A DNA stretch of 64,000 nt, from the NCBI GenBank assembly GCA_000934665.2, contig JYFJ02001009.1:1-64000 (forward strand), read 5' to 3'. The DNA comes from Catajapyx aquilonaris (Eukaryota). Positions within the stretch are counted from its first letter, which is position 1; every line of letters starts with the position of its first letter. The notes below the pieces were generated by a model. That model was not told the DNA's origin. It saw nothing but the letters and a program-made list of their open reading frames with translations, and did not search any database. This document shows, piece after piece, positions 17,680 through 53,596 of this stretch. A program made the translations under genes and the position numbers.

Positions 17680-20600
17680 TTTATTCACTATTTTTCTTCT
17701 CTCTCTCTTTTTTTTTGATCTTCCAACACTGGTTCACAAAACACTTTTTTTTTTTCAAATGTTGTACTGATGCTGTCCGTAACTGCAACTTCATCATAAA
17801 AACAGTCAACAACAACAATAACACTTCTCTGCATAGGTGACCTTTTTTTTAAACCATACAACATGCTTTTACCAAGAAGCGCTACACCTTCATTATTACC
17901 ACTACTGTATTGCTATTAAATGCCCTATCATTTTTTTAAGTACTGTCTCTGCTGCTCAGCAAAAAAAAAAAAAAAGTCATCCAAGTTAGCACTGTTTTTA
18001 AAAAGTCAGTCACTATTTTAACAACCTAAGTACCATGCAGAACATGGGATTGCCAAAAAAACAACAAAAAGTTTTGTTCGGTCCGAGTACTTGTGTAGTT
18101 GCGAGTATTCTAAGCAAATGAATTTATCGTTATTGTAAAAAAAAAACAACAATTGGGCCTGAAACAATCTTAACTACGATAAATCATTTGAACAACGTTA
18201 ATAGTTAATTCATTATTGCACAATACATAGTTAACTGCTTGTGGGTGCAATTAAACTAACAAAATATATATTTTGTTTCCCATGGCACTATGTTCTACAT
18301 AATCCCCCCCCATTCAGAGACGACAAAACGACCTTTTGCTGGGGAACGAAAATAACGTAAAAAAATAAATGCCTGATGCATTACTAAAACAAAAGAGTGC
18401 ATTAACATGATTACTTTTCTTTCTGCCTCCCGTGCATACTCTACTTACATACATTAAGTACAATGCGTTGTTCCAGCTTGTCACCCAAAAAATGTAAGCA
18501 AATCAAAAATTGTAGACATGATGCCATGGCCCAGGACATTTTTTTTTTTCCTTCCCCTAAATTTATATCTCTTCATATTTTTTTTCCAACTATATTTTTG
18601 GCACAAGTGAGATTGAACAACAGACTGAGATTGAGTTTAATTGTAAGGCACTGGCAGCTGTTATCAACCTTATATAGTATTTAAAAACTTTTGTCAATGA
18701 GATTCTCATTATCTGCACACCTCCAAAAATGGCCACTTCTAAACTTAACACCTACACCTGTAACACATTAATATATCTTTTTTTTTCTTCATTATTATGG
18801 TGTGTGCCTTACAAATCTAACTCTGAGCACGCAAAACAAAAAAACCCCAACAAAAGGGAGATAATTCGTAATAATAATAATAATAATTAATTATGAGAAA
18901 AAAATATATATCAAGGGAGCAAATAAACTTACAGGGCCTTTTGTCGACCCTGCAGCAGCACCGATATGGCTTTTTTCCGTATAGAAAATGACAGCAAGAT
19001 GATCGGGGCACTTGTGACAACAAGATGCTCTCTGCCAATAATATTGTGATTGTCGCAATTTTCTTCTCGATTGTCAACTAAGTACACATCACGTAAGATT
19101 CTTGGCATCCGTAACTAGATCTATACATTTTAAGATCCATAAATGAGATTCTGGTTAACAATAGAGTATTAAATTTCCATCAGCATACTGTCATTTTCCT
19201 TAATAATATTATATTTATAATAAATCAAAAGGTGCAGATAATTTCTCTACACATTACAAGAGAAATAAAAACTTGAGATTCCTCACATTGCAAGAAGATA
19301 TCTGCACTCCTTCCATAATAAACACAAAAATGAGACATCTACAAATTTGTGCCATGCAATCGAGGACTGTCGAAAGGAAGGAAAAAAAAATTGAGATTTT
19401 CGTTTGCTCGACAAATAAATGTGCAAAAAAATGAAATAAACGTAAAGTGAAAAAAGAAGCCCATTTTTTAAAAAAGTTTATATGGCACTCAAAAAGCCTT
19501 ACTGTGATCCCTCCCTTCAACTCCGGCCAAGAAAGAAAAAGAAAAAGTTGACAAACAGTAACCGCTGCCTTTAGCTGCCAAACATTTCCTTCCTTTTGAA
19601 ACAACCCAAAATTTACCCAGTTCATTTTTTCCCCCCCCTCTTCATTACTCACATACACCATACCAAAAACACAAGACATTAGTATTGTTATATTCTTTTT
19701 GAACATGAACCACTGTTATGCTATTCAAATCTGCCTTTTTTCATAATCTCAAGTGACATTGTACACCATATGAACTTGTAACGTTTTCTTCTTCTTTAAA
19801 CAACTCACAATAATACAAAGGGGGGAAAAAAGGCAGCAAAAAATTACTGAACATCTTAGGAACAAAGAAATCCAAGAAAAAAATTATTACAGCACAGAAA
19901 ATAGTCAAGCCAGGCACCTACCCAAGGACTGAAGAATTTTTTCGAGGCTCATATTTTCCACTGCCGCAAGTTAGTCCTAAGTTGGTGAGTGCAGATGTGT
20001 TTTTTTGGCTTTTTTTTTTGTTTGTTCTCCACCGTGCAGAGTTACGAAACACATTTTTTTGGTAGGTGAGGGGGAATCCAAGTTGTTAGCACTTCGCGAG
20101 CCTACTGCAGGCCAGGGGTTGGTTAACAGAAAAGAAAAAAGAAAAAAAAAAAAAACAGAATGTTAGTGTTTATACTTTTTCAAAAGTGAACAACCGTAAT
20201 ATTATAAAAAGCAGCCAAAAAGTGACTTCTCAAATGTCTTTTTTTGGAATTGTTTGAAAAAAAAATTAGTTGCTTTAAATTCACTTCGTGGCTGAACATG
20301 TGCATAGCACCAGCATGCAGCATCCCCACAGCTACACTTTGGCTTGTTCTTTTTATTAAAAACAAAAACAAATCCCTTTCAAATGCATTATTAAAATTAG
20401 TGTGCAGAAGCTTCATGACAACAGTGAATTGAGAAGCATTTCTTGGGGAAAAATAAGCGAAAGCTTGCTGCCCGCTTTTTTTTTTGCAAATCGTCAAGGC
20501 AAGTGAAATGAGTGAATTTCAGGCAAAAAGTGCAAACTGTGGAGTGATAGGCAAAAAAAAAATACATAACCAGTTTTAATAGTAAAAAAAAAAGCTTACA

Positions 20601-21850
20601 AACTATAAACTACACGATCCCATCGGCAGGCACAGGCCTTCCACTATTGTTTCAAAAATAGTGCAAGTCTCATGCCCACCTTCCCCACACAAAATCACCT
20701 ATTAAATTCTACTAATCAAGAAGATGTTAGTTCTAAAGAATAAAAGTTGACTCGACGGTTTACTCATTTTTTTTTAGTTTTGGAAGTGGCACATGAATTA
20801 GTTCTTAATTTCTGGTTAAAACTTGCATTCAACTTAGGTAGAAAAAGTTTCACACAAAATCTTATGCCAAACTTTACTTTTTTATTTCCTTGTCAAACTT
20901 TTTGCCAATTATATACAAAATGGTACAAATGTCATGTTGGAGCTAAAATGCTCCCGACAAAAAAATACAAAATAGCGTGCTACGAGGAATATACACAAAT
21001 ATAAATAATATATTAACTTCCTTTTTTTTTCTCTCTCTCAATCTCTCCACATCTCCTTTAGGAGAATTACAAGAGAGTCACACACACAAAAAATCTGTTC
21101 TCACATATACAAATAGTATAAAAGATAACAGAGGAAAGAAGGTTTAATTTTTCATCTCTGTCTTCCGTCACTGGGCATTTCCAAAGTGAAGATCAGAGGA
21201 CGAATCACAACCTCATTTCATCTAAGTACACGACTCACTTTCCGAAGCAAAATTCCGTAACAAAAAGGTAGTACTCGTAGAAAAACAGACTGGATTCAGC
21301 AGGCAAAACTCAAATCTGTACCACGATTTGAAAATAGCCATTGGGTTTTAATCGGATTCGCATTGTTAAAAGTCTGGAATGTACTTGTGAGCTGTCATGT
21401 CTTTAAAATTTTGTCAGTAGAACAGCAAAAAAATGAAAATTGTACGATAAAATCACCGACCGGAGAAAAAAAAAATAGCAGTAATAAACCTAAATTGTGT
21501 GACTAGCAGAGTTGAATGCTTCCGGTTCCTTCAAAATGTTCATCGAAAGTATGAATTATGCTTGTGGACCGCATCATTAATCGGCAAGTGAAACAGCCCT
21601 TGGCAGCAAAATATTTCCATGTGGAAAGGAAATACTGCAGAGCTGCCACCAAACGAAACGACAAGTTCCTATGTTTATAACACGCTTAATGGTCACTCCT
21701 GAGGATTTTAAGCCTTCTTCCCTCGCGTACAAAAAATGACAGTATCAAAAGCTACCATAGCTTAGAAACAATAAGTATCAAAAAATCATGGAAACTAACC
21801 TTTGTGTTCAATTTTTTTTCTGAATTCTGTTTTTGTGAATTTTGGATTGC
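17680..21850 (-). other. how: Probable long (~4.2 kb) 3' UTR of how(L)
   Basis: Non-coding, U-rich on the minus strand, running from the stop at 21851 to a minus-strand AATAAA at 17685-17680. The actual end point is inferred. Confidence 0.5.
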
Positions 21851-33400: not shown

Positions 33401-36400
33401 GCTTCTTACTCGCCCAATTTCTGAAAAAATTACAGAAGAATACAACTGTAGCAATCAGCAGGAGACACACATTTCATATACACGACCGATCACTTTGGAT
33501 CCCTGGTGGCAGCTACTTTTAAAGACAAATTCGTTGCTTGGGTGGGCCAATTCCCAAAACATCGGCGTCCTTGCCCCCATCCAGCATCGGATGTCAGATG
33601 CAACCCGCCCTCAATTTATTCCTCCCCGGGATAAAAACCCCACCCGCCTCGATACATCCAAAAGCCGCCATCCCCATCCATCCCATGCCAAGTTTGCAAT
33701 CACACAACCGGTGCACAATTGGCAAAAAAAGGGCGCGGTTAATCTTGACTAATGCAAACAGGGACCCCGTCTACACCTGCTCTCCTCCATTATTCTCCAC
33801 TCTCTTTCCAAAACCTAATGTGTCTTAGGGCGGAGGCCTACCACGGGTATATTTTTAAAAGAAGGTTTGTATAGTGTGGGTGTGGGAGCGTACCCGTATA
33901 GGTAGGTAGCACGCCTGTCGAGAGAGAGAAAATGGCAACAAAGGCCAACAGTGCCAGGCCAACAGTGATAAAAGACTGCCACTCCCGCCCTGCATCCATC
34001 TTTCTTTTTTTTGTGTGTGTGTCTGTGCTTTTAAACCTTCCCGCCCACACCAGCACGTGCACACACACACACACAAAAAAAAGGAAAAGTGCGCCGCCTA
34101 CTCTTATCCAGAACATGGGATGGACCCAGGTGGAACCCCCGAAGAATGCGCGTGGTTTGCATTTTGTTGCTCGAATGAACACACCCCCATTGCGCTCCAC
34201 GGCTACTGAGCAACACCAGGGTGTTTACATGTTGTGGTAGAGAGATTACACAGCACCCCTACTACCTGATGCCTAACGGAAAGATTAATATCGCTGCCAA
34301 ATTATACAACCCGGATATGTATGCTCGGGATCAAAATTCAATTTTTGTCCACACACCCCCTGTCGCGATCCGCATCGCTATAAAGTGCAACTCATGGAGT
34401 AACCACTCTTGGAGCAGAAGATTTGATGGCCACTTCTGATGAAGGCCTTTTTTCCTCACTTGACGCCTTTAATGTGGGTTAACCCCCTAGGCGACAATGA
34501 ACAGAAGGCGCAAAGTACAGCGTAAATATATCAGACGTTTTTTGGGGGCCAGGCAGATACCCAGCACTTGTTTGACGGTTCTAAAAATCCTCTTCCAAGG
34601 CCTCCTGGAAGAAACACAAGCCAGAAAACACCGAGCTTATTTTGTCTTTTAGCCGACGTGCTAACTTTTCTTTCTTTGCAGCATCAGCTAAACTCCGGGG
34701 GCTTACAGCTCCACCACAATGTTCACTGTATGTGTTGCACACGCGTCATGAAAATTGCAAATTCTGATTGGGGGGTACATAACGGGACAAATTCCTGTCG
34801 GATGTCGTGTTAAATGTTTGAATTATGGCCAATTGGTGGCCTCGTGATTGCTTCGTTCTTTCACACTCTCATCTACCTGAAACTAATTAGTGCGGGTGTC
34901 CGTCTCCGCCGTGAAAAAGAGGCTGCTTTCCTCACGAACTGACCGCAGTGACCACCGCGCAGTGCCAATTGTGACTCTCACACCCACAACAAGATAAAGT
35001 ACCCTGCAGATCAAGTGACCCCTTATGGTTTAAAAAAAAAAAAAATGCGCGGCACCTTTTTTAGTGGTGGGCTTCGTCTGTCCGGCGACTTCCATGGCCC
35101 CAAGCAATACGTTAAGAACCGTCGCCATTTCGTGCCTAAAAACCGCCAAAAAATTCCGCACAATTAAGTAATGGCCTCGGTGCCTGACCCGACCCAAGCG
35201 GACCAGTCCATCAGTCTTGGAGAGCTTCAAACTCGTCCATGCTACACGTCATTAAAAGAAAAAGGTAATTTCCTCCTCCGCTGTTTACCAAATACTGCCG
35301 CCACCGCTTTCACTTCCTCGATTTCTCATTTCCCCCAGCACACCTTCCACCCACATCCCCACATCCATTTTTCAATATTCAAAAAAAATGCGTTTCCTTC
35401 CAAAACGCCTCGTAAATAATCGCCATAGTGGGCGACAAGTCTTAGTCATCCCTACAAAGACAACGAGAGAAAAAAAAACGTGTCTGGAATCTTCTGCCCA
35501 ACCAAGAGGCGCCCAATAAAAATAAAAAAAGCCACGGCTCCTAATTCTATATGCGCACATATGCTGGACGAAACATCCGGTTTGGCTCTAAGAAGACCTC
35601 ATAAACCACACGTTTACACTATACAATGGTGCAAAACCGTCTGAAAGAACCTGCTCAATTTGGGTGGAAAAAAAACTTGGCGCAAAGTGTGGAAACGCCT
35701 TCGAAATTACGCAACCCATCGTATAAAATGTGGTGCAGCGGTGGCACGCTCAAGTCCGTTTCATGTGTTACCGGCCGGCCGTCATTTGGCCCCCGGAACC
35801 AGCGTGACCACTTCCAATGCCTACATATCTATGTCGACACGGATCAGCACGATCCGGACGATTCAATACCGGAATCCATTAAACACGTATAAACGTACCT
35901 CCTGTTGACAAAAAAATATTTGCATTAAATCCTTCTTGTCGCATCTATTATTCCACATGCACATGTGTCCTAAGGAAGTCCCTTGGCCAGTCAACAAGGT
36001 CAGTCGGCACAATTCCAGCCTAAAAGAAAATGTTGTTGGTGTCATCCTGCTGCAGCACGCGCCATGTAGTGTCTATTTCGAAGGCCGACACATCCTCCCA
36101 GTTTATTTACAAGGATGCTGCACCAATATGTCATCAGGAATTAATTGGTCACGCTCTACAAATCCAATAATAGCTTCTCCAAATCCACCCTGCTATGTCA
36201 GCTCAGCTTCCGTTCAGGAATAAGTAACTATAAAACTGCACGTCTATAAAACAGGGTGCGTCTTTCTCATTTTGCAAAAAAATTTCGCCACGCCCCAACA
36301 CCCCCCTAAGGAGACATGACCTCCTGCAACACAACCTGCACCATAAATGCAACGTTACGTTTAAGTAGAGCTGCCTTTTTTTTTTTAACGAAGCGAACCT

Positions 36401-45400: not shown

Positions 45401-48400
45401 AATGATGAATGCCAGATTATGCCCCTTGATTTTGCTGGCACCCTTGTGGCATCCAGGGACACTTGTTTATAATCCGCGGCTTCTTAAACTATAAGAAAAA
45501 CGGGGCGCTTTCTCCAACCTTATTCCCAAGTGCGGAGGGGGGGGGGGGGGGGNAACCAAACGTGATCTGCATGAACACCTTCAGAAGCCACATGCAGCTA
45601 TTTGAACTTCTTACACGAATTTACGGGACCAACACCCTGATTTTTTTTTTTTTTTTACAGCTGGATCTGCGCGAATTCATATATTCTAACCCAATTAATT
45701 AGCGACGTTAAGACTGGTCTTGCCAGTTCCCAATTTTCAACCCGTCGGAGAGTCCGAATCGCTGTTGTTATATACGGTACCATCAAACGTCAGGTCGGGC
45801 AAGATTAGGCTCGTAAAAAGAGTATCCCACCCTGTCGTAAAAGTCCGAAATTCCGCTGGAAAATAGTCATCACCGCTTCCCTTTAAAAAAAAAAACGCCG
45901 ATTAATTTCTCCGCCAAATTATGACGTCAATTTTGCTAAACGGCCCATATTTTATAACCTCCGGTGTTCCTTTCGCCTCCGTATCAATTATCGCTTTCTA
46001 CTCTTTTTTTTCCGGACCCCAGCAATAGACATGTTTATAGCGTCGGTTTTCTATGCGAAAACATTTTTCAGGAAACCGGCAGACACTATATGACGCGTCC
46101 TTTTCCAACCCCAGCCCCCCAAATAAATGACTAATTTAGCGCCTCATAAAGACAACGAGGCAACTTTACGAGCTACTGGTGTTGCCTTGCTGTGACCGGC
46201 TTTCACACATTTACTCTCTCGTTTCTTCTGGGACACATTTTAGCCGACACATACAACCCAATTATGAGAGAAATCGGGATTTGCCAGTCTCGAAGGCCGG
46301 CCGGCCGGCTCATCCTCAACTACCACCGAAAGAAATGACTTTTGACCCTCTTTTTACCCCCAGTCACTCCTAGATCAACACAATAAGCCAGCACGTACGA
46401 ATTACAGCCCCAAAAGAGGCGTGGAAATGTAGATTGGCTTCGACCCATTAATCTCCTTTGACGTTGAAAACCCCACCCTATAGTATAAGGAGAGAGAGAG
46501 AGAAAAAAAAGTAACAACTCATACATACTCTTACTAGCCCCGAAAATTCCTATCATTGAAGGCAGATCGTGGGCATAATCAAAAGAGACGTCGCCCATCT
46601 CGTTCAAGAGTTAAGTAACCAGGGTGGACAGCCTGAGAGGGGGGTTGTCTGGGTAGTCACCACCATGTCAAATGTGGAGCCAAGGTCGTTTTTGTTCTCT
46701 TCTGGCGCGGTTGATATCCGGATAACTCAGGATACCTGTTATGTGTCACTAATTTATGCAAAGTGATGGGCGGTGCATCTCACCAGCTGGCTATACACCG
46801 TGAGGTGGAATCTGTGACAAATTCGACCTTTGCAACAAGCACTAAAATAGGTTTGAACAGTGCCCGGATTCTCCCAAAAAATTAAGCTGCAGAGTATGTA
46901 GCCAGCATTCCCATTGATTATGCTTCAACATGCTCAGGCATGCCATGGAAAAGTAATTACACAAACGGTACAGAAGGGTTTCAGATTGCAGGTATACCCA
47001 GTGGTGTCATCGGCTTCCACGTCTCAATCGGGGGCTATTAGGAGGTGCGAAGGAGTACAACGTTGACCCCGAGGTCACGTCGGGTCATCAATAATAACCC
47101 CCGGTTGCGACTGCGCCCCGTTAGAAGATCACGAAACGGCCATTGCCTTATTGGACGAGCTGGAGGGTGGGCCTATCATCGATGCTGGGTGCCACATGCA
47201 AATGCGCACAATGTGACATCAGATGACCTCAACGACTCTCTTTTAAAAAAAAAACTTAACCGGCCACGTGCTGGGCCAACGTCCTGCTCGGTGTCCAACT
47301 TGCCCACTTTGCAATTATTGTTTTTAATAACATACATGTGAAAAGCTTTGCATCACTCACGCTCGGGCCCCCACTCTTAATTCAATAATTGCAGCTTACA
47401 GGATGCCAATCCGTTAATAACCCGCCTCTCAAGACGCGGTAAAAGCTGGCCCAATATAATGTTAATAACTTCATTATTACACCCGCGATTCACGTTTTAA
47501 TGGGGGGGGCACCCTTGGCGCATCCTTGGGATGCACGGAAAAGCACTTTGTACAAATACAGGAGGCCGCCACCTGGTCAAAACGTATGAATGAAAATCGG
47601 CGTCCCTTAGACGACCCTGAGGTAAAAGAAAGACGTGGGTGGACTTGAACAGAAAGAAAAAAATTGGGCACGTCTCACAGAATCACCCGAATCGGATGAC
47701 CACACTTTTTGATGCCCTCCAGACACGGTGCACCCTTCCGGAGGCCTTGCCTTCATTTGCATATGCTCTGTCCCCACAACCTGCTTTTTTTCCCCCCCAC
47801 AGCAGGTACAAGACCCGCCCAAAGGGTCTCTTTCTTCCCTCGGACCAAGGACGCGGAGGAAGGTGGAGTTGGTCGGCTTTGAGAGGGGGTGACCCTACTA
47901 GACTGACAAGTAAAATACGGCGCACCTTTCCCTACCTGCTTTTTTTTTATAATATACTCTTTACACCTCCGCTTGTTACACCCACGCCCTTTCACCTCGC
48001 GCTGAAACAACTACAAACTGATAACGTGGCACTTTGAGGGTCATAACAGGGATATTCATTCATGGTGCAGACTATACATGGCTCGCTGGTCATGCAGAAA
48101 AGAAACCAGCCATTAGACAAACGGAGCTTTCAACGAGTGCGCATTTTGATAAATATTATTTACCATCCCTTATCGCGTGATCAAAAAAAAAAAAGAAGGG
48201 TTATGCTAATGCTCCACCTGTGCATCAGATTACACCTCGAGATAATCAGCTATCAAAAAATAACAACCGCTATCACAAAAACAAACAATAACTGATTGAC
48301 TATGCATTGACCCTGGCTAATTCGCTGCGGGGCTCTCACGTCGATTACTAATTTAAAAAAAAATCGGATTCGGCATTGTCACATGTTACGCAACACTACC

Positions 48401-51400
48401 GGTCACTGTTATTGGGTGGGCTAAAATGCCTATCAATAATATCGCATGTGCATTCCTCCACAATTTTTTTAAAAACCCCTGAGGTTGTGTGTCGCCACAA
48501 CTCTCAAGGACAGCCGCACACAAAAGCACGCGTCAAGATTTATTTCCGATGCGTCTGTGCCATTTACGCCTCCGATCATTGAGAGAAAAAGTTCAAGGTT
48601 CCTTCCACGGTTTTTCTGCAACAATCAATCCGGTGGTGTTGGGTGGGTGGATGGGGGCAGACCAGGCCTTTTGCATCATGAACCCCACCCGGACCAACAT
48701 GGCTGGCAGCAGGAGGAATGTGAGACCCCCTGAGGGCTAATCCCCAGCAACTGGCTCTGGGACACGAGCAACAGACTTCCAAGAAGTCGAACTGCCACAT
48801 GGCTAGGATGCAAAAGAGTCATTTGGGTCACTTCTTCGCGAAAAATTTCAAACTAACCACTGTTGGCGGAATTTCAAGTATATCCACCTTCCAGGAAGCC
48901 ACCTTTGCCCTTATACAAAAAAAAATGCTGTTATGGAATAATAAGCTTGTTTTGCTTGATTGTTTTACACCTGGGCTTGAAGGATATTGCACGGTTGGGG
49001 TGTGAAAATGTCAAATGTGACGTTGCCTGACTCTGTGCCTGATTGAACCGATCTGGGGCGCTGTCATAAATACATTAACAATTCCACGGCTTTGCTCGAA
49101 AAGGAATTGACAATTGTAACTGCAGGACGACGATGCTAATCTTGTCGCTTTCCCTACGTGCCAGACATAGTACGTCTGTTGACAGCTAATGGATATAAAG
49201 AGAAAGGGGTGAGCCACGACAATTGGACCAATCCCCGAGCAGTGATCAATTTTACAGATATCTGTCACGGCGAGGGCATGGAAAATAGAAGACTCAATTT
49301 CCAAAGGTGTCCCTAGTGGCCTATTGGCTGCTGTGATAAATTAAACACGGATTTTCAAATATTATCTCTACTAATTCATTCCCCCAGGAGGAGGGCATTT
49401 GTCAAGATTTTCAAGATGCAATTAATCTGTTGCCAACAAATATTGGTAACATATGGTGTGGAGTGCATGTGATCTAATGAACACACGGAAACCTCCTAAT
49501 GCGGAGACATGAACATATTGTACTGCAAAACGCTCATTAGTTGCTTATTCATCAAGTCTGTAAATTTCCCAAAAAAAAACAGGTTCCTCGCACACAATGT
49601 GCTGGAAAAATGAATAACAGTGTGGGCCTTGGAGCAATATGACTGGCTCAGAATTTCTTAACCCTAGAACCCCACTTGTCTTGTAACACGCCAACCAAAA
49701 AAAAAAAAAAATGTTCAATCCTTTTGACTCCCCTTAAGTGTAATTATCCAATATCAACAGCAACAACAAGTCCCACCTTGCAATTTTGGGCAGTTAGCAT
49801 GCTTATGGTCAGGTAGCCTGCAATTTCATTCCAGGTGGTCTCCCGCACTCCTTCATGGCTCCGGGTAATGTGAGTTATGACATGGTGGTTATAAGTGTCT
49901 CCCCGCACCCACTGGATTCCTCCATTGCACCTTGGATGTCTTCATGCCTAATTATACTGCTGGGTAATTGGGCTCTGACGCAACACTGCATGGTCATTTG
50001 AGTCCCGCAAGGTGCCAGTTTGACCACCACTGATGAGATCCCCAAGAAATTACAGAGGGTGGGCTCCAATATGAAGGCTTCCTACTCAACAAGTTCTGCT
50101 TGTGTTGCCTGCAATATTTATGAGCATGTCACCATCCACATAAAGCTACCGATGCATAACTTCATGACAAAATATGTAGTGACCAGTGGTGTCAACTATG
50201 ATTTATTGCGCTTACCCTTTCGTTGTCCACAGCGAGTACTGGCTCTCTCTCATTAGTAGCACCCAGTTAGAACAATGCATTATGTATGAGAAGATTATGT
50301 GCACTTTGTAGTTTTTAGAAGTTTCAGTACAGCACTGGAGCAGTTACATGGAAAAATAAAACTAACATGTCGACAGATCTGCTGCAGTCTCCTGGTCAGC
50401 CCACCATTAATGGTACACACATCCTACAGCCTTGACAGCGACCCCTTGCAGACTAGCATACAAGTTACTGGAATATTATGGTCGTCAAACATAATTCCCG
50501 GCATACACAAAAATTAGTGTCCTAATTCCACCTTGCAACGTAATCCAGTCTGGACCTTGTTTTAAAATCAACACACAGCGCCACCGGTCGGTTAGACTCA
50601 CACATGAAACATTAGAGACTCAGGGATCCAAGTGAATATTAGCGCGATGGGGGTACCCTCAGTAAAAGAAGTTGGGTTACAACAGATTGGAAACAAATAA
50701 TACTCGACACACACAACACAGGTGTATATATCATCAAGTACCACACAGACTCGCACAAAGAATTAATCAGCTTAGCTTACCCTCGACGTTACAGAGTTAC
50801 ACAGGTTAGTGACACCTTGCACGCTGAAAGACAGGCAAGTTGGAACATGCTGAAACACTACGCATGCAGTGTAAACCAATTAAATTGCATTTAATAAAAT
50901 ATCTGCAACAGTGCACTTATTCCCAACCAACAATCCCCCAGCATAAAAAAATCTACACAAGCAAGCAGCCTGTCTCGGTTTTAAGCAATGCGCCAACTGC
51001 ATCACGGTTAACGTTCCCAATGAAATGCATGCATGAATTAGGGGTGCCCACTCCTTCGTTCCTTGGCAGTCGTCTACACCCAGAGCAACATTTCCCAAGG
51101 CAAAACACATCACAGGAGGCATTTGAGAGTCATACTCTGGAACCTAGATTGGCAAGGCCCTTGTTATGCCCACCTGACTCTTAATTATCTCTTTACCACA
51201 AAAATTGTATAACATTATGCAACTTTTACAATCAAAAACTTCCTGCCGCACTTTACCTTTTTTTGAACCAAGATGCTCTCTGTATTTATTTTCTTCGGTA
51301 TCCAACCGGCCCTCACCGAAATTTTCCCTTTCTGCACCAAAATTCTGCCACGCACCGTTACAGGTGCACCAAGCGGGTTAAAAGTATATAAAAAAAAGTA

Positions 51401-52223
51401 GGAAAATTGAGGTAGTAGGGCATTAGTGTGTTACACCAACCCAATTCCAAACACCTCAACTTCCTCAGACCATAAACCATCACTTTTACCTTGACTTTTA
51501 ACATGAAAAATTCTTCCACTTGACAAATCTGATGTGTAATGTAGTATGACCGCACAATTATTTTTAAGAATGCAGTTACTGACACCGAGACCTGACTCAC
51601 ATTTCATACAGCGGTATGACCATTGGACATCACGTGTCCGTGTGGGCAACTATCCAATTCATTGTTTTAAGAGGCACATGCCGCATGTATACAAATTAGG
51701 GTGTTCCCAAGTGCACTTGTTGCATGTACTACAAAAAATGTTTATCCTAAGGATGGTGTATGGCCTGCCAAAAATTCCATTAGAAAAAGTACAGTTTTTG
51801 CAATGTCAGGTCCTTGGCTTTGTCCGAATGGCCCAAGTCAAGGCTTCTTTTCTTTTCTTCCCCCTCCAACTCCCATCCCTTCCTTTCTTTCCTTCCCCCA
51901 TTTTTTTTTCTCTCTCTTACCCTCTCCAACTCTCCACTCCCAGAGAGAGACGCCAAGGAACGGAAAAGGCAAGCGAAAAAAAGGGGGGGTTAAGAACACT
52001 TTGCATTCCCCCCAAAAAACACACACACGTTCCACACACACACACACACACACACATTCTAATAAAAGGACTATAATAAAAACGATGCTGCCTTACCTTC
52101 ATCGAGAAGTCTTTCAACGTGCATGAAGACGTTAGGGAAAGCCGCAAGCTGCTTCTTGTCTTTAAGTAGTTGTGCTAAGTAGTCAGCTATGCTCTGCGTG
52201 TTGTTGTTAGTATTTTCACCCAT
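21851..52223 (-). CDS. how: Held out wings / Quaking STAR-family KH RNA-binding protein, long isoform How(L); 328 aa
   Basis: complement(join(21851..21927,24519..24812,25473..25566,28688..28831,33103..33219,33287..33420,52097..52223)), all GT-AG and in phase. QUA1 [66 protein letters not shown]2 [23 protein letters not shown]-terminal REHPYQR nuclear-retention motif. Confidence 0.95.
24499..24812 (-). CDS. how: how coding exon 6 (Pro/Ala/Tyr-rich; internal donor for L, read-through for S)
   Basis: [14 protein letters not shown]...[32 protein letters not shown]...YAPY..DYANY; ACACAG acceptor with an ACTAAC branch-like site at 24852-24847. Confidence 0.9.
24499..52223 (-). CDS. how: How(S) short isoform; 309 aa ending GGLFAR
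   Basis: Reading through the exon-6 donor (GT at 24518-24517) gives ...[12 protein letters not shown] (stop 24501-24499). GGLFAR is the short-isoform tail as I recall it from Drosophila How(S). Confidence 0.85.
25473..25566 (-). CDS. how: how coding exon 5 (QUA2)
   Basis: [37 protein letters not shown] acceptor, GTAAGT donor. Confidence 0.95.
28688..28831 (-). CDS. how: how coding exon 4
   Basis: [55 protein letters not shown] acceptor, GTAAGT donor. Confidence 0.95.
33103..33420 (-). CDS. how: how coding exons 2 (33287..33420) and 3 (33103..33219), KH domain
   Basis: [14 protein letters not shown]...[10 protein letters not shown] | [39 protein letters not shown]; separated by a 67-nt intron. 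Confidence 0.95.
50781..50823 (-). other. how: Candidate 43-nt poison cassette exon in how intron 1
   Basis: Acceptor CTTGCCTGTCTTTCAG, donor AGG|GTAAGC. In-frame TAA when joined to exon 1. Contains CACTAAC-N5-TAAC. Confidence 0.55.
52097..52223 (-). CDS. how: how coding exon 1 (QUA1)
   Basis: [42 protein letters not shown], donor G|GTAAGG. Not present in the ORF track. Confidence 0.95.
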
Positions 52224-52517
52224 TATGGTCTCTCTCTCTCTCTCTCTCCTATATGATATAGATGTGTTTTTTTGAGGGGATTATTTTAAAAAAAGTGTGG
52301 GTTCTTTTCGGTGGGGCACAGGCCACGATGGGCCCGCACAGGGAAGAGGAACTAGAGGGGTTAAGAGGTGGGGGATAATAGTCTACCTGAGAGGTTGAGC
52401 TGCGTACTGAACCACACGCCCCGGCAACGCACGGACACGACTTGTGGGGGCCAGGCGCGGGGGCGAGACTGGCTAGGGGCAGGGGGGGAGGAGGAGGAGG
52501 AGGAGGAGAAAGAGAGA

Positions 52518-53317: not shown

Positions 53318-53596
53318 TCGTACCCCGTGATAAGCCGGCGCGGCGGCTCTTTAGGGGGAATTTTTTTTGTCTGGAACTCTTTGCTTTCACTTTTACTTAG
53401 CTTTTTGGGATAGGATAGGGACGAAAGGAAGCGGCTGTGGCCTATTTTTACGGAAATAACTCCGGAATTCTCCTGGAGGAACCGTGGGAAACCACAGAAA
53501 ACCACGGTTAGAGTTGCCGGCACCGGGATTCGAACCCAGGACCTCCCGATTAGGAGTCGAACTCCTTAACCACTACACCAACTGCTTCGGTTATAG
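53265..53596 (-). mobile_element. tRNA-derived SINE with (TTA)n tail and 11-bp target-site duplication
   Basis: Minus-strand head with Pol III box A TGGTGTAGTGG (53580-53570) and box B GGTTCGAATCC (53536-53526), ~200-bp body, (TTA)18 tail at 53316-53263. CCAATACTGTA is repeated directly at 53254-53264 and 53597-53607. Confidence 0.8.

Follow-up and report, generated by a model that had tools for sequence, protein, structure and literature searches.

Does the long first intron of the how gene hold a small exon through which the How protein could limit its own production? The question is raised by a segment of 43 nucleotides (nt) in a stretch of the Catajapyx aquilonaris genome (assembly GCA_000934665.2, contig JYFJ02001009.1, positions 1 to 64,000), which is referred to below, at its full length of 64,000 nt, as the window. 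The minus strand of the window carries a how/Quaking (QKI) orthologue of the STAR family. How and Quaking are dosage-sensitive regulators of RNA processing in muscle, glia and the germ line. The segment lies in intron 1, between a good splice acceptor and a good splice donor, and encloses a putative binding element for How itself. Based on the evidence presented here it is probably a fortuitous pseudo-exon (probability about 0.5), most likely one that is not used as an exon in how mRNA, while the odds that the segment is functional at all are roughly even.

Splice sites, reading frame and motifs of the candidate

The original prediction had assigned the gene to how/QKI, and had described a 43-nt segment bounded by a good acceptor and a strong donor, 1.3 kb into an intron of 18.7 kb, together with its reading frame and its motifs. 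All of this description agrees with the sequence. Exon 1 encodes a match to the Pfam STAR dimerisation region (PF16544, STAR_dimer; E = 4e-20), the further exons were mapped by tblastn, and the gene has the QUA1 and KH/QUA2 domains and the orthologous exon structure of a how/Quaking gene. Intron 1 separates the end of exon 1 at 52097 from the start of exon 2 at 33420 and has a length of 18,676 nt. The segment (Table 1) starts 1,273 nt into this intron and is flanked by CTTGCCTGTCTTTCAG on its upstream side and GTAAGCTAA on its downstream side. When all AG and GT dinucleotides of intron 1 were ranked by a rough consensus score, which serves for this ranking only, the candidate acceptor was number 16 of 1050 AG and the candidate donor, AGG/GTAAGC, number 7 of 1267 GT. 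A possible branch point (CCAAC) was recognized by eye 16 nt from the candidate AG, and an additional AG is located 27 nt upstream.

Exon 1 ends in phase 1. Translation of exon 1 joined to the candidate results in a stop after 11 codons, and the length of 43 nt shifts the frame as well, so inclusion would bring both the premature stop and the frameshift that are typical of a poison exon. The element CACUAAC, followed 5 and 13 nt past its core by UAAC half-sites, was found as described. The complete array, CACUAAC-N5-UAAC-N4-UAAC at 50811-50788, conforms to the published NACUAAY-N1-20-UAAY definition of the QKI/How element, that is, ACUAAY with a UAAY half-site (PMC5695090). No other ACTAAC than its core occurs in the sense strand of the 18,676-nt intron, the TAA of its second half-site is the in-frame stop itself, and the array ends 8 nt from the candidate donor. 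The UGCAUG of Rbfox type predicted upstream of the acceptor is also present; a second GCAUG, absent from the earlier description, lies between it and the acceptor.

One part of the original prediction was contradicted. Inclusion of the segment had been proposed to yield, alternatively, a QUA1-only dimerisation peptide with dominant-negative potential. Of the 53 positions of the STAR_dimer model, exon 1 accounts for no more than 1-35. The truncated product would therefore have an incomplete QUA1 region, and a dominant-negative role for it is doubtful.

The predicted RNA structure of the candidate region was not unusual (z = 0.05), and the region matched no Rfam family. Tandem repeats were not found in 50600-51000, nor was any similarity of 50400-51200 to other parts of the window. 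Two other roles of the segment were considered and rejected. As an alternative first exon it would need a frame continuing into exon 2, and this frame contains TAA stops and no ATG. As a recursive splice site (ratchet point) it fails since it begins with CG, not GT; a scan of intron 1 for YAGGTRAG revealed no match.

Frequency expected by chance

Pseudo-exons of long introns are AG...GT pairs with good consensus scores and without evidence of use. The candidate differs from an ordinary one in that it encloses the intron's only ACUAAC together with two half-sites, and the chance level was therefore estimated for the splice sites, for the motif and for both.

Acceptor-donor pairs of this rank, 25-300 nt apart, are expected by chance about 1.7 times per intron (16 x 7 x 276/18676). 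In the whole window, pairs of equal quality were found 3 times on the plus strand, which served as control, and 8 times on the minus strand, where two of them correspond to how exons 3 and 4 and a third has the donor of exon 1 as its end. Given the expectation of about 1.7 and the 3 pairs on the control strand, one such pair is therefore expected by chance. The bipartite site ACTAAY-N1-20-TAAY was observed once in intron 1 as compared to 0.93 times per simulated intron, the simulations being 3000 first-order Markov versions of intron 1. Thus the splice-site pair alone and the bipartite site alone are each at chance level; their combination is considered with the preferred reading below.

Search for the candidate in other species

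A protein collection, which included open reading frames called on assemblies of public runs, was queried for the exon-1 peptide. The highest exon-1 identity was 95%, no protein reached 100%, and Catajapyx itself is not represented. Among the 240 proteins listed (the best 120 of 240 short ones of 23-74 residues and the best 120 of 695 longer ones), none carried the candidate tail after the exon-1 peptide: 188 run on into the intron, with a tail starting with G, 49 continue into the canonical exon 2 and 3 are odd gene models of other species. With Catajapyx missing from the collection, this negative carries little weight.

Metagenome contigs scanned with an alignment of exon-1 peptides gave 138 confirmed loci, and 80 of these were analysed. 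They comprised 34 spliced transcripts, 32 genomic loci with intron-1 sequence totalling 76 kb, 12 loci without the anchor pattern and 2 variants of the canonical join. Inclusion of the candidate was not seen in the spliced contigs of these other species, all 34 of which join exon 1 directly to exon 2. In a blastn search of the 80 loci the candidate query returned 32 rows (E at least 0.64), none of them overlapping the exon and all of them microsatellite matches. A scan of genome contigs produced a single locus, an irrelevant bacterial match, and nothing similar to the candidate. The sense strand of the 32 genomic introns showed no excess of bipartite sites (10 sense versus 8 antisense). One pseudo-exon look-alike was detected, at about +388, in 4 of 9 closely related loci, and the other 5 have ACTGAT in place of ACTAAT. 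This comparative evidence on exon use is negative, and weakly so because all the species compared are distant from Catajapyx.

Other features of intron 1 and of the start of the gene were observed in the same loci and proteins. Intron offset 445-557 of locus L020 aligns with 558-659 of L061 and 563-664 of L062 as a conserved island, 75% identical along 113 nt, at a distance of about 0.5 kb from the beginning of how intron 1. It has near-identical blocks of about 20-33 nt, one with GTGCATG, lacks ACUAAY, is not matched by any part of the window, and looks more like an enhancer than like an exon. Loci L065 and L067 also share a conserved island in intron 1, again without ACUAAY and without a counterpart in the window. 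The protein P0298, a held out wings isoform of Macrobrachium rosenbergii according to its source, begins with MRRR followed by exon 2, without QUA1; the annotation of at least one decapod therefore includes an alternative exon 5' of exon 2.

A probable fortuitous pseudo-exon

The most likely explanation of these results is that a good AG and a good GT came to lie 43 nt apart by chance, on either side of the single ACUAAC-UAAC-UAAC cluster in the intron. In this case the segment would remain unspliced in how mRNA, or would be spliced at noise level only, and such a noise-level product, with its stop and frameshift, would be a substrate for decay without a regulatory role. The chance level of the single parts is consistent with this. 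In addition, the prior for a function is low because there is no report from the well-studied flies and mammals and no counterpart in other arthropods. A full-text literature search revealed no poison exon in intron 1 of how or QKI, and in a Drosophila screen for nonsense-mediated decay (NMD) CG10293 was found neither in the main text nor in 12 of the 35 supplementary files (PMC2689934).

Several observations weigh against a pseudo-exon. On the ranking score described above the candidate acceptor (4.75) is on a par with the gene's own constitutive acceptors (4.72 and 4.75), and the candidate donor (8.77) falls between the gene's own constitutive donors (8.44 and 11.3). The combination of the pair with the bipartite site is uncommon by chance: a pseudo-exon as good, enclosing such a site, occurred in 23 of the 3000 simulated introns, and in 224 of 3000 when both cut-offs were loosened by 2 bits. 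Because the cut-offs were set after the candidate had been seen, a fair joint chance level is about 1-8%. At least two GCATG within 60 nt upstream were found for 4 of 1049 intron-1 AGs, the candidate acceptor among them. Of the 8 ACUAAY that intron 1 has on its sense strand, 5 fall within the first 2.6 kb (52096-49500), where 1.1 were expected from local composition, although this cluster, whose boundaries were picked after inspection, is of marginal significance in a scan test (P = 0.02 for the intron, 0.23 for the whole window). Finally, the distance of the species compared limits the weight of the comparative negatives.

If the segment is a pseudo-exon, the locus illustrates that, in an intron of 18.7 kb, a consensus motif between well-scoring splice sites is in itself insufficient to make an exon.

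A possible poison exon controlled by How

The original prediction had seen the segment as a poison exon by which How controls its own level. How would bind the ACUAAC-UAAC-UAAC array, possibly together with two ACUAAU further downstream (at 263 and about 520 nt), and alter inclusion of the segment; the stop and frameshift would lead to decay of the mRNA, and thus to feedback on the level of How. In Catajapyx such an exon would be lineage-specific, with the element within the exon, Rbfox-type motifs upstream and ACUAAY downstream. This is possible, though on balance rather unlikely.

Every formal part of such an exon is present in the sequence, with the joint chance level given above, and the intron's only ACUAAC is inside it. 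ACUAAC is bound by the HOW STAR domain, oligonucleotides being bound at 6-10 nM, and half-sites are said to help; ACUAAC with a nearby half-site represents a high-affinity HOW site, and a change of A to G at the fourth position of ACUAAC reduced HOW binding about 8-fold (PMC12868882). According to the position rule for QKI, sites in the upstream intron repress inclusion and sites in the downstream intron activate it (PMC13004596), and the ACUAAY downstream of the candidate fit the rule that downstream sites favour inclusion. The candidate resembles QKI-regulated exons in its motif, tandem ACUAAC and half-sites near the exon, and differs from them in that their sites are in the flanking introns, whereas here the full element is within the candidate exon (PMC13004596). 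This position is non-canonical, and binding beside the donor could equally block inclusion. As the exonic element near the donor could hinder exon definition, whereas the downstream sites would favour inclusion, How may either promote or block inclusion. Further points against a poison exon are that 43 nt is short and the branch-point candidate weak, that no analogous arrangement was found in the 32 genomic how loci, where the sole look-alike has ACTGAT in 5 of 9 cases, and that the literature search returned no such exon for how or QKI.

Autoregulatory poison exons are known from other RNA-binding proteins, among them RBM39 (PMC10477243) and the SR proteins (PMC12632421). The candidate shares with such exons that it is a small cassette in the gene of a splicing regulator, with stop and frameshift, and with a motif, in the exon or beside it, for the protein that the gene encodes. 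The classical ones are strongly conserved; of the candidate, the sequence parts are shown here, and its inclusion, NMD sensitivity, binding by How and conservation are hypothetical. Closer relatives of How, the STAR proteins SLM2 and Sam68, autoregulate by splicing coupled to NMD (PMC5199341). They belong to the same protein superfamily, and there too the protein feeds back on its own pre-mRNA to give an unstable isoform. Unlike the intron-1 cassette considered here, their mechanism relies on the terminal coding exon, where an alternative 5' splice site is used, together with downstream non-coding exons (PMC5199341).

In the mouse, autogenous and cross-regulation of the orthologous gene, Qk, involve splicing at the 3' end and sites in the 3' untranslated region (UTR) (Fagg et al. 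2017, PMC5695090). The same paper mentions an unchanged NMD isoform of Qk5. The likeness to the window extends to the ACUAAY elements by which Qk proteins act on Qk RNA; the window too has dense ACUAAY, in the putative 3' UTR of a long isoform. The difference is that the mouse gene is regulated at alternative 3' ends and 3' UTRs, and a poison exon in intron 1 was not found in the part of the paper searched (PMC5695090). The dense sites of the window are at 19683-20802 on the minus strand, where 7 ACUAAY (3 ACUAAC and 4 ACUAAU) occur in 1.12 kb as compared to 1.2 expected (window-wide scan P = 0.00025). This region lies 1-2 kb past the stop codon in the alternative last coding exon and is likely a cluster of How/QKI sites in the putative 3' UTR of a long isoform. 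It suggests self-targeting of the how transcript in Catajapyx, by a route already known, and to that extent it speaks for a poison exon as well.

The self-control of How/Quaking described in the work cited here acts at the 3' end of the gene (PMC5695090). If How also acted through the candidate, a 5'-proximal loop of splicing and NMD would be a second, independent feedback route beside self-regulation through the 3' UTR. It would provide a clean case for the effect of a STAR protein bound inside an exon, and a further instance of the well-known coupling of autoregulatory splicing to NMD.

Other explanations

The proximal ACUAAY sites might bind How on the pre-mRNA without any exon being involved, and might thereby affect the removal of intron 1 or nuclear retention; the splice sites would then be irrelevant or a non-productive decoy. 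The 5 sense ACUAAY in 52096-49500, as compared to the 1.1 expected, point in this direction, as do the antisense strand of the same region, which has 1 where 1.8 are expected, and a UAAC or CUAAC partner within 20 nt in 3 of the 5. Against it stand the marginal significance of the cluster and its post hoc boundaries, and we consider this explanation unlikely.

Very unlikely is a tissue-specific cassette exon under other factors, for example Rbfox acting through the two GCAUG within 45 nt upstream of the acceptor, with the ACUAAC being incidental. In support of it, such a pair is rare among the AGs of intron 1 (see above), and the candidate's is one of only two close pairs among the 65 GCATG on the gene strand. 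GCATG is, however, one of many regulator motifs that could have been noticed, so that its choice is post hoc, and a frameshifting exon of 43 nt would yield no useful protein. The other close GCATG pair is also located in intron 1, at 46933-46947 on the minus strand, with starts 10 nt apart.

That the ACUAAC is the branch point of an acceptor further downstream, a site of competition between SF1 and QKI, is hardly credible. In its favour, ACUAAC matches the branch-point consensus, and at ACUAA branch sites SF1 faces competition from QKI (PMC13004596). Against it, a pyrimidine tract with a YAG was not seen 15-45 nt past the ACUAAC: the AGs in the next 60 nt (GAG/G, AAG/C, AAG/C and GAG/T) lack such a tract and carry G or A at -3, and a strong donor follows 25 nt later instead.

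The how gene and further features of the window

Tblastn with three How proteins gave matches at 52223-52098, 33421-33287, 33219-33103, 28834-28685, 25566-25483, 24792-24502 and 21928-21857. Coordinates of the exons derived, of the candidate and of the motifs are listed in Table 1.

Table 1. Positions of how exons, candidate segment and sequence motifs in the window
Feature	Position	Strand	Basis or remark
how exon 1, coding sequence	52223-52097	minus	127 nt, 42 codons + 1 nt; phase 1 at end
how exon 2	33420-33287	minus	entered in phase 1
how exon 3	33219-33103	minus	KH core
Further how exons	near 28831-28688, 25566-25483	minus	tblastn with How proteins
C-terminal exon, short ending	24792-24502	minus	last residues GGLFAR, then stop
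Alternative last coding exon	21928-21857	minus	matches the tails of long isoforms from ticks and barnacle
Candidate 43-nt cassette (pseudo-)exon	50823-50781	minus	sequence and translation; reads CGTGCAAGGTGTCACTAACCTGTGTAACTCTGTAACGTCGAGG
Candidate acceptor region	50824..50843	minus	CCAACTTGCCTGTCTTTCAG
Candidate donor, intronic part	50772..50780	minus	AGG/GTAAGCTAA
ACUAAC core, putative How/QKI response element	50810-50805	minus	motif scan
UAAC half-site 1	50799-50796	minus	5 nt past core
UAAC half-site 2	50791-50788	minus	13 nt past core; TAA at 50791-50789 is the in-frame stop
ACUAAU	50513..50518	minus	263 nt downstream of candidate donor
CUAAC-N8-ACUAAU	50252..50270	minus	about 510-530 nt downstream of candidate donor
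UAAC-N2-ACUAAU	51422..51433	minus	about 600 nt upstream of candidate acceptor
UGCAUG (Rbfox-type)	50868-50863	minus	40 nt upstream of candidate acceptor
Second GCAUG	50850-50846	minus	22 nt upstream of candidate acceptor

Over exon 1 the named relatives were the 'protein held out wings' of ticks (93% identity) and of a copepod and a barnacle (90%). The C-terminal exon is more variable, and its best named match in the sequence collections compared was 66%; these collections therefore contain no close relative of the species. The two alternative C-terminal endings of the window's how gene resemble those of the short and long How/QKI isoforms.

Two dinucleotide runs occur on the minus strand: (GT)n at 52020-52060, a short way into intron 1, and (GA)n at 52225-52250, immediately before the start codon. 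The window has a single N at four positions (511, 29123, 45553 and 52897). ARAGORN identified no tRNA anywhere in the window. At 53515-53582 on the minus strand, about 1.3 kb 5' of the how start, a marginal match to the Rfam tRNA family (30.1 bits as compared to a cut-off of 29; E = 0.03) may represent a degenerate tRNA-derived element.

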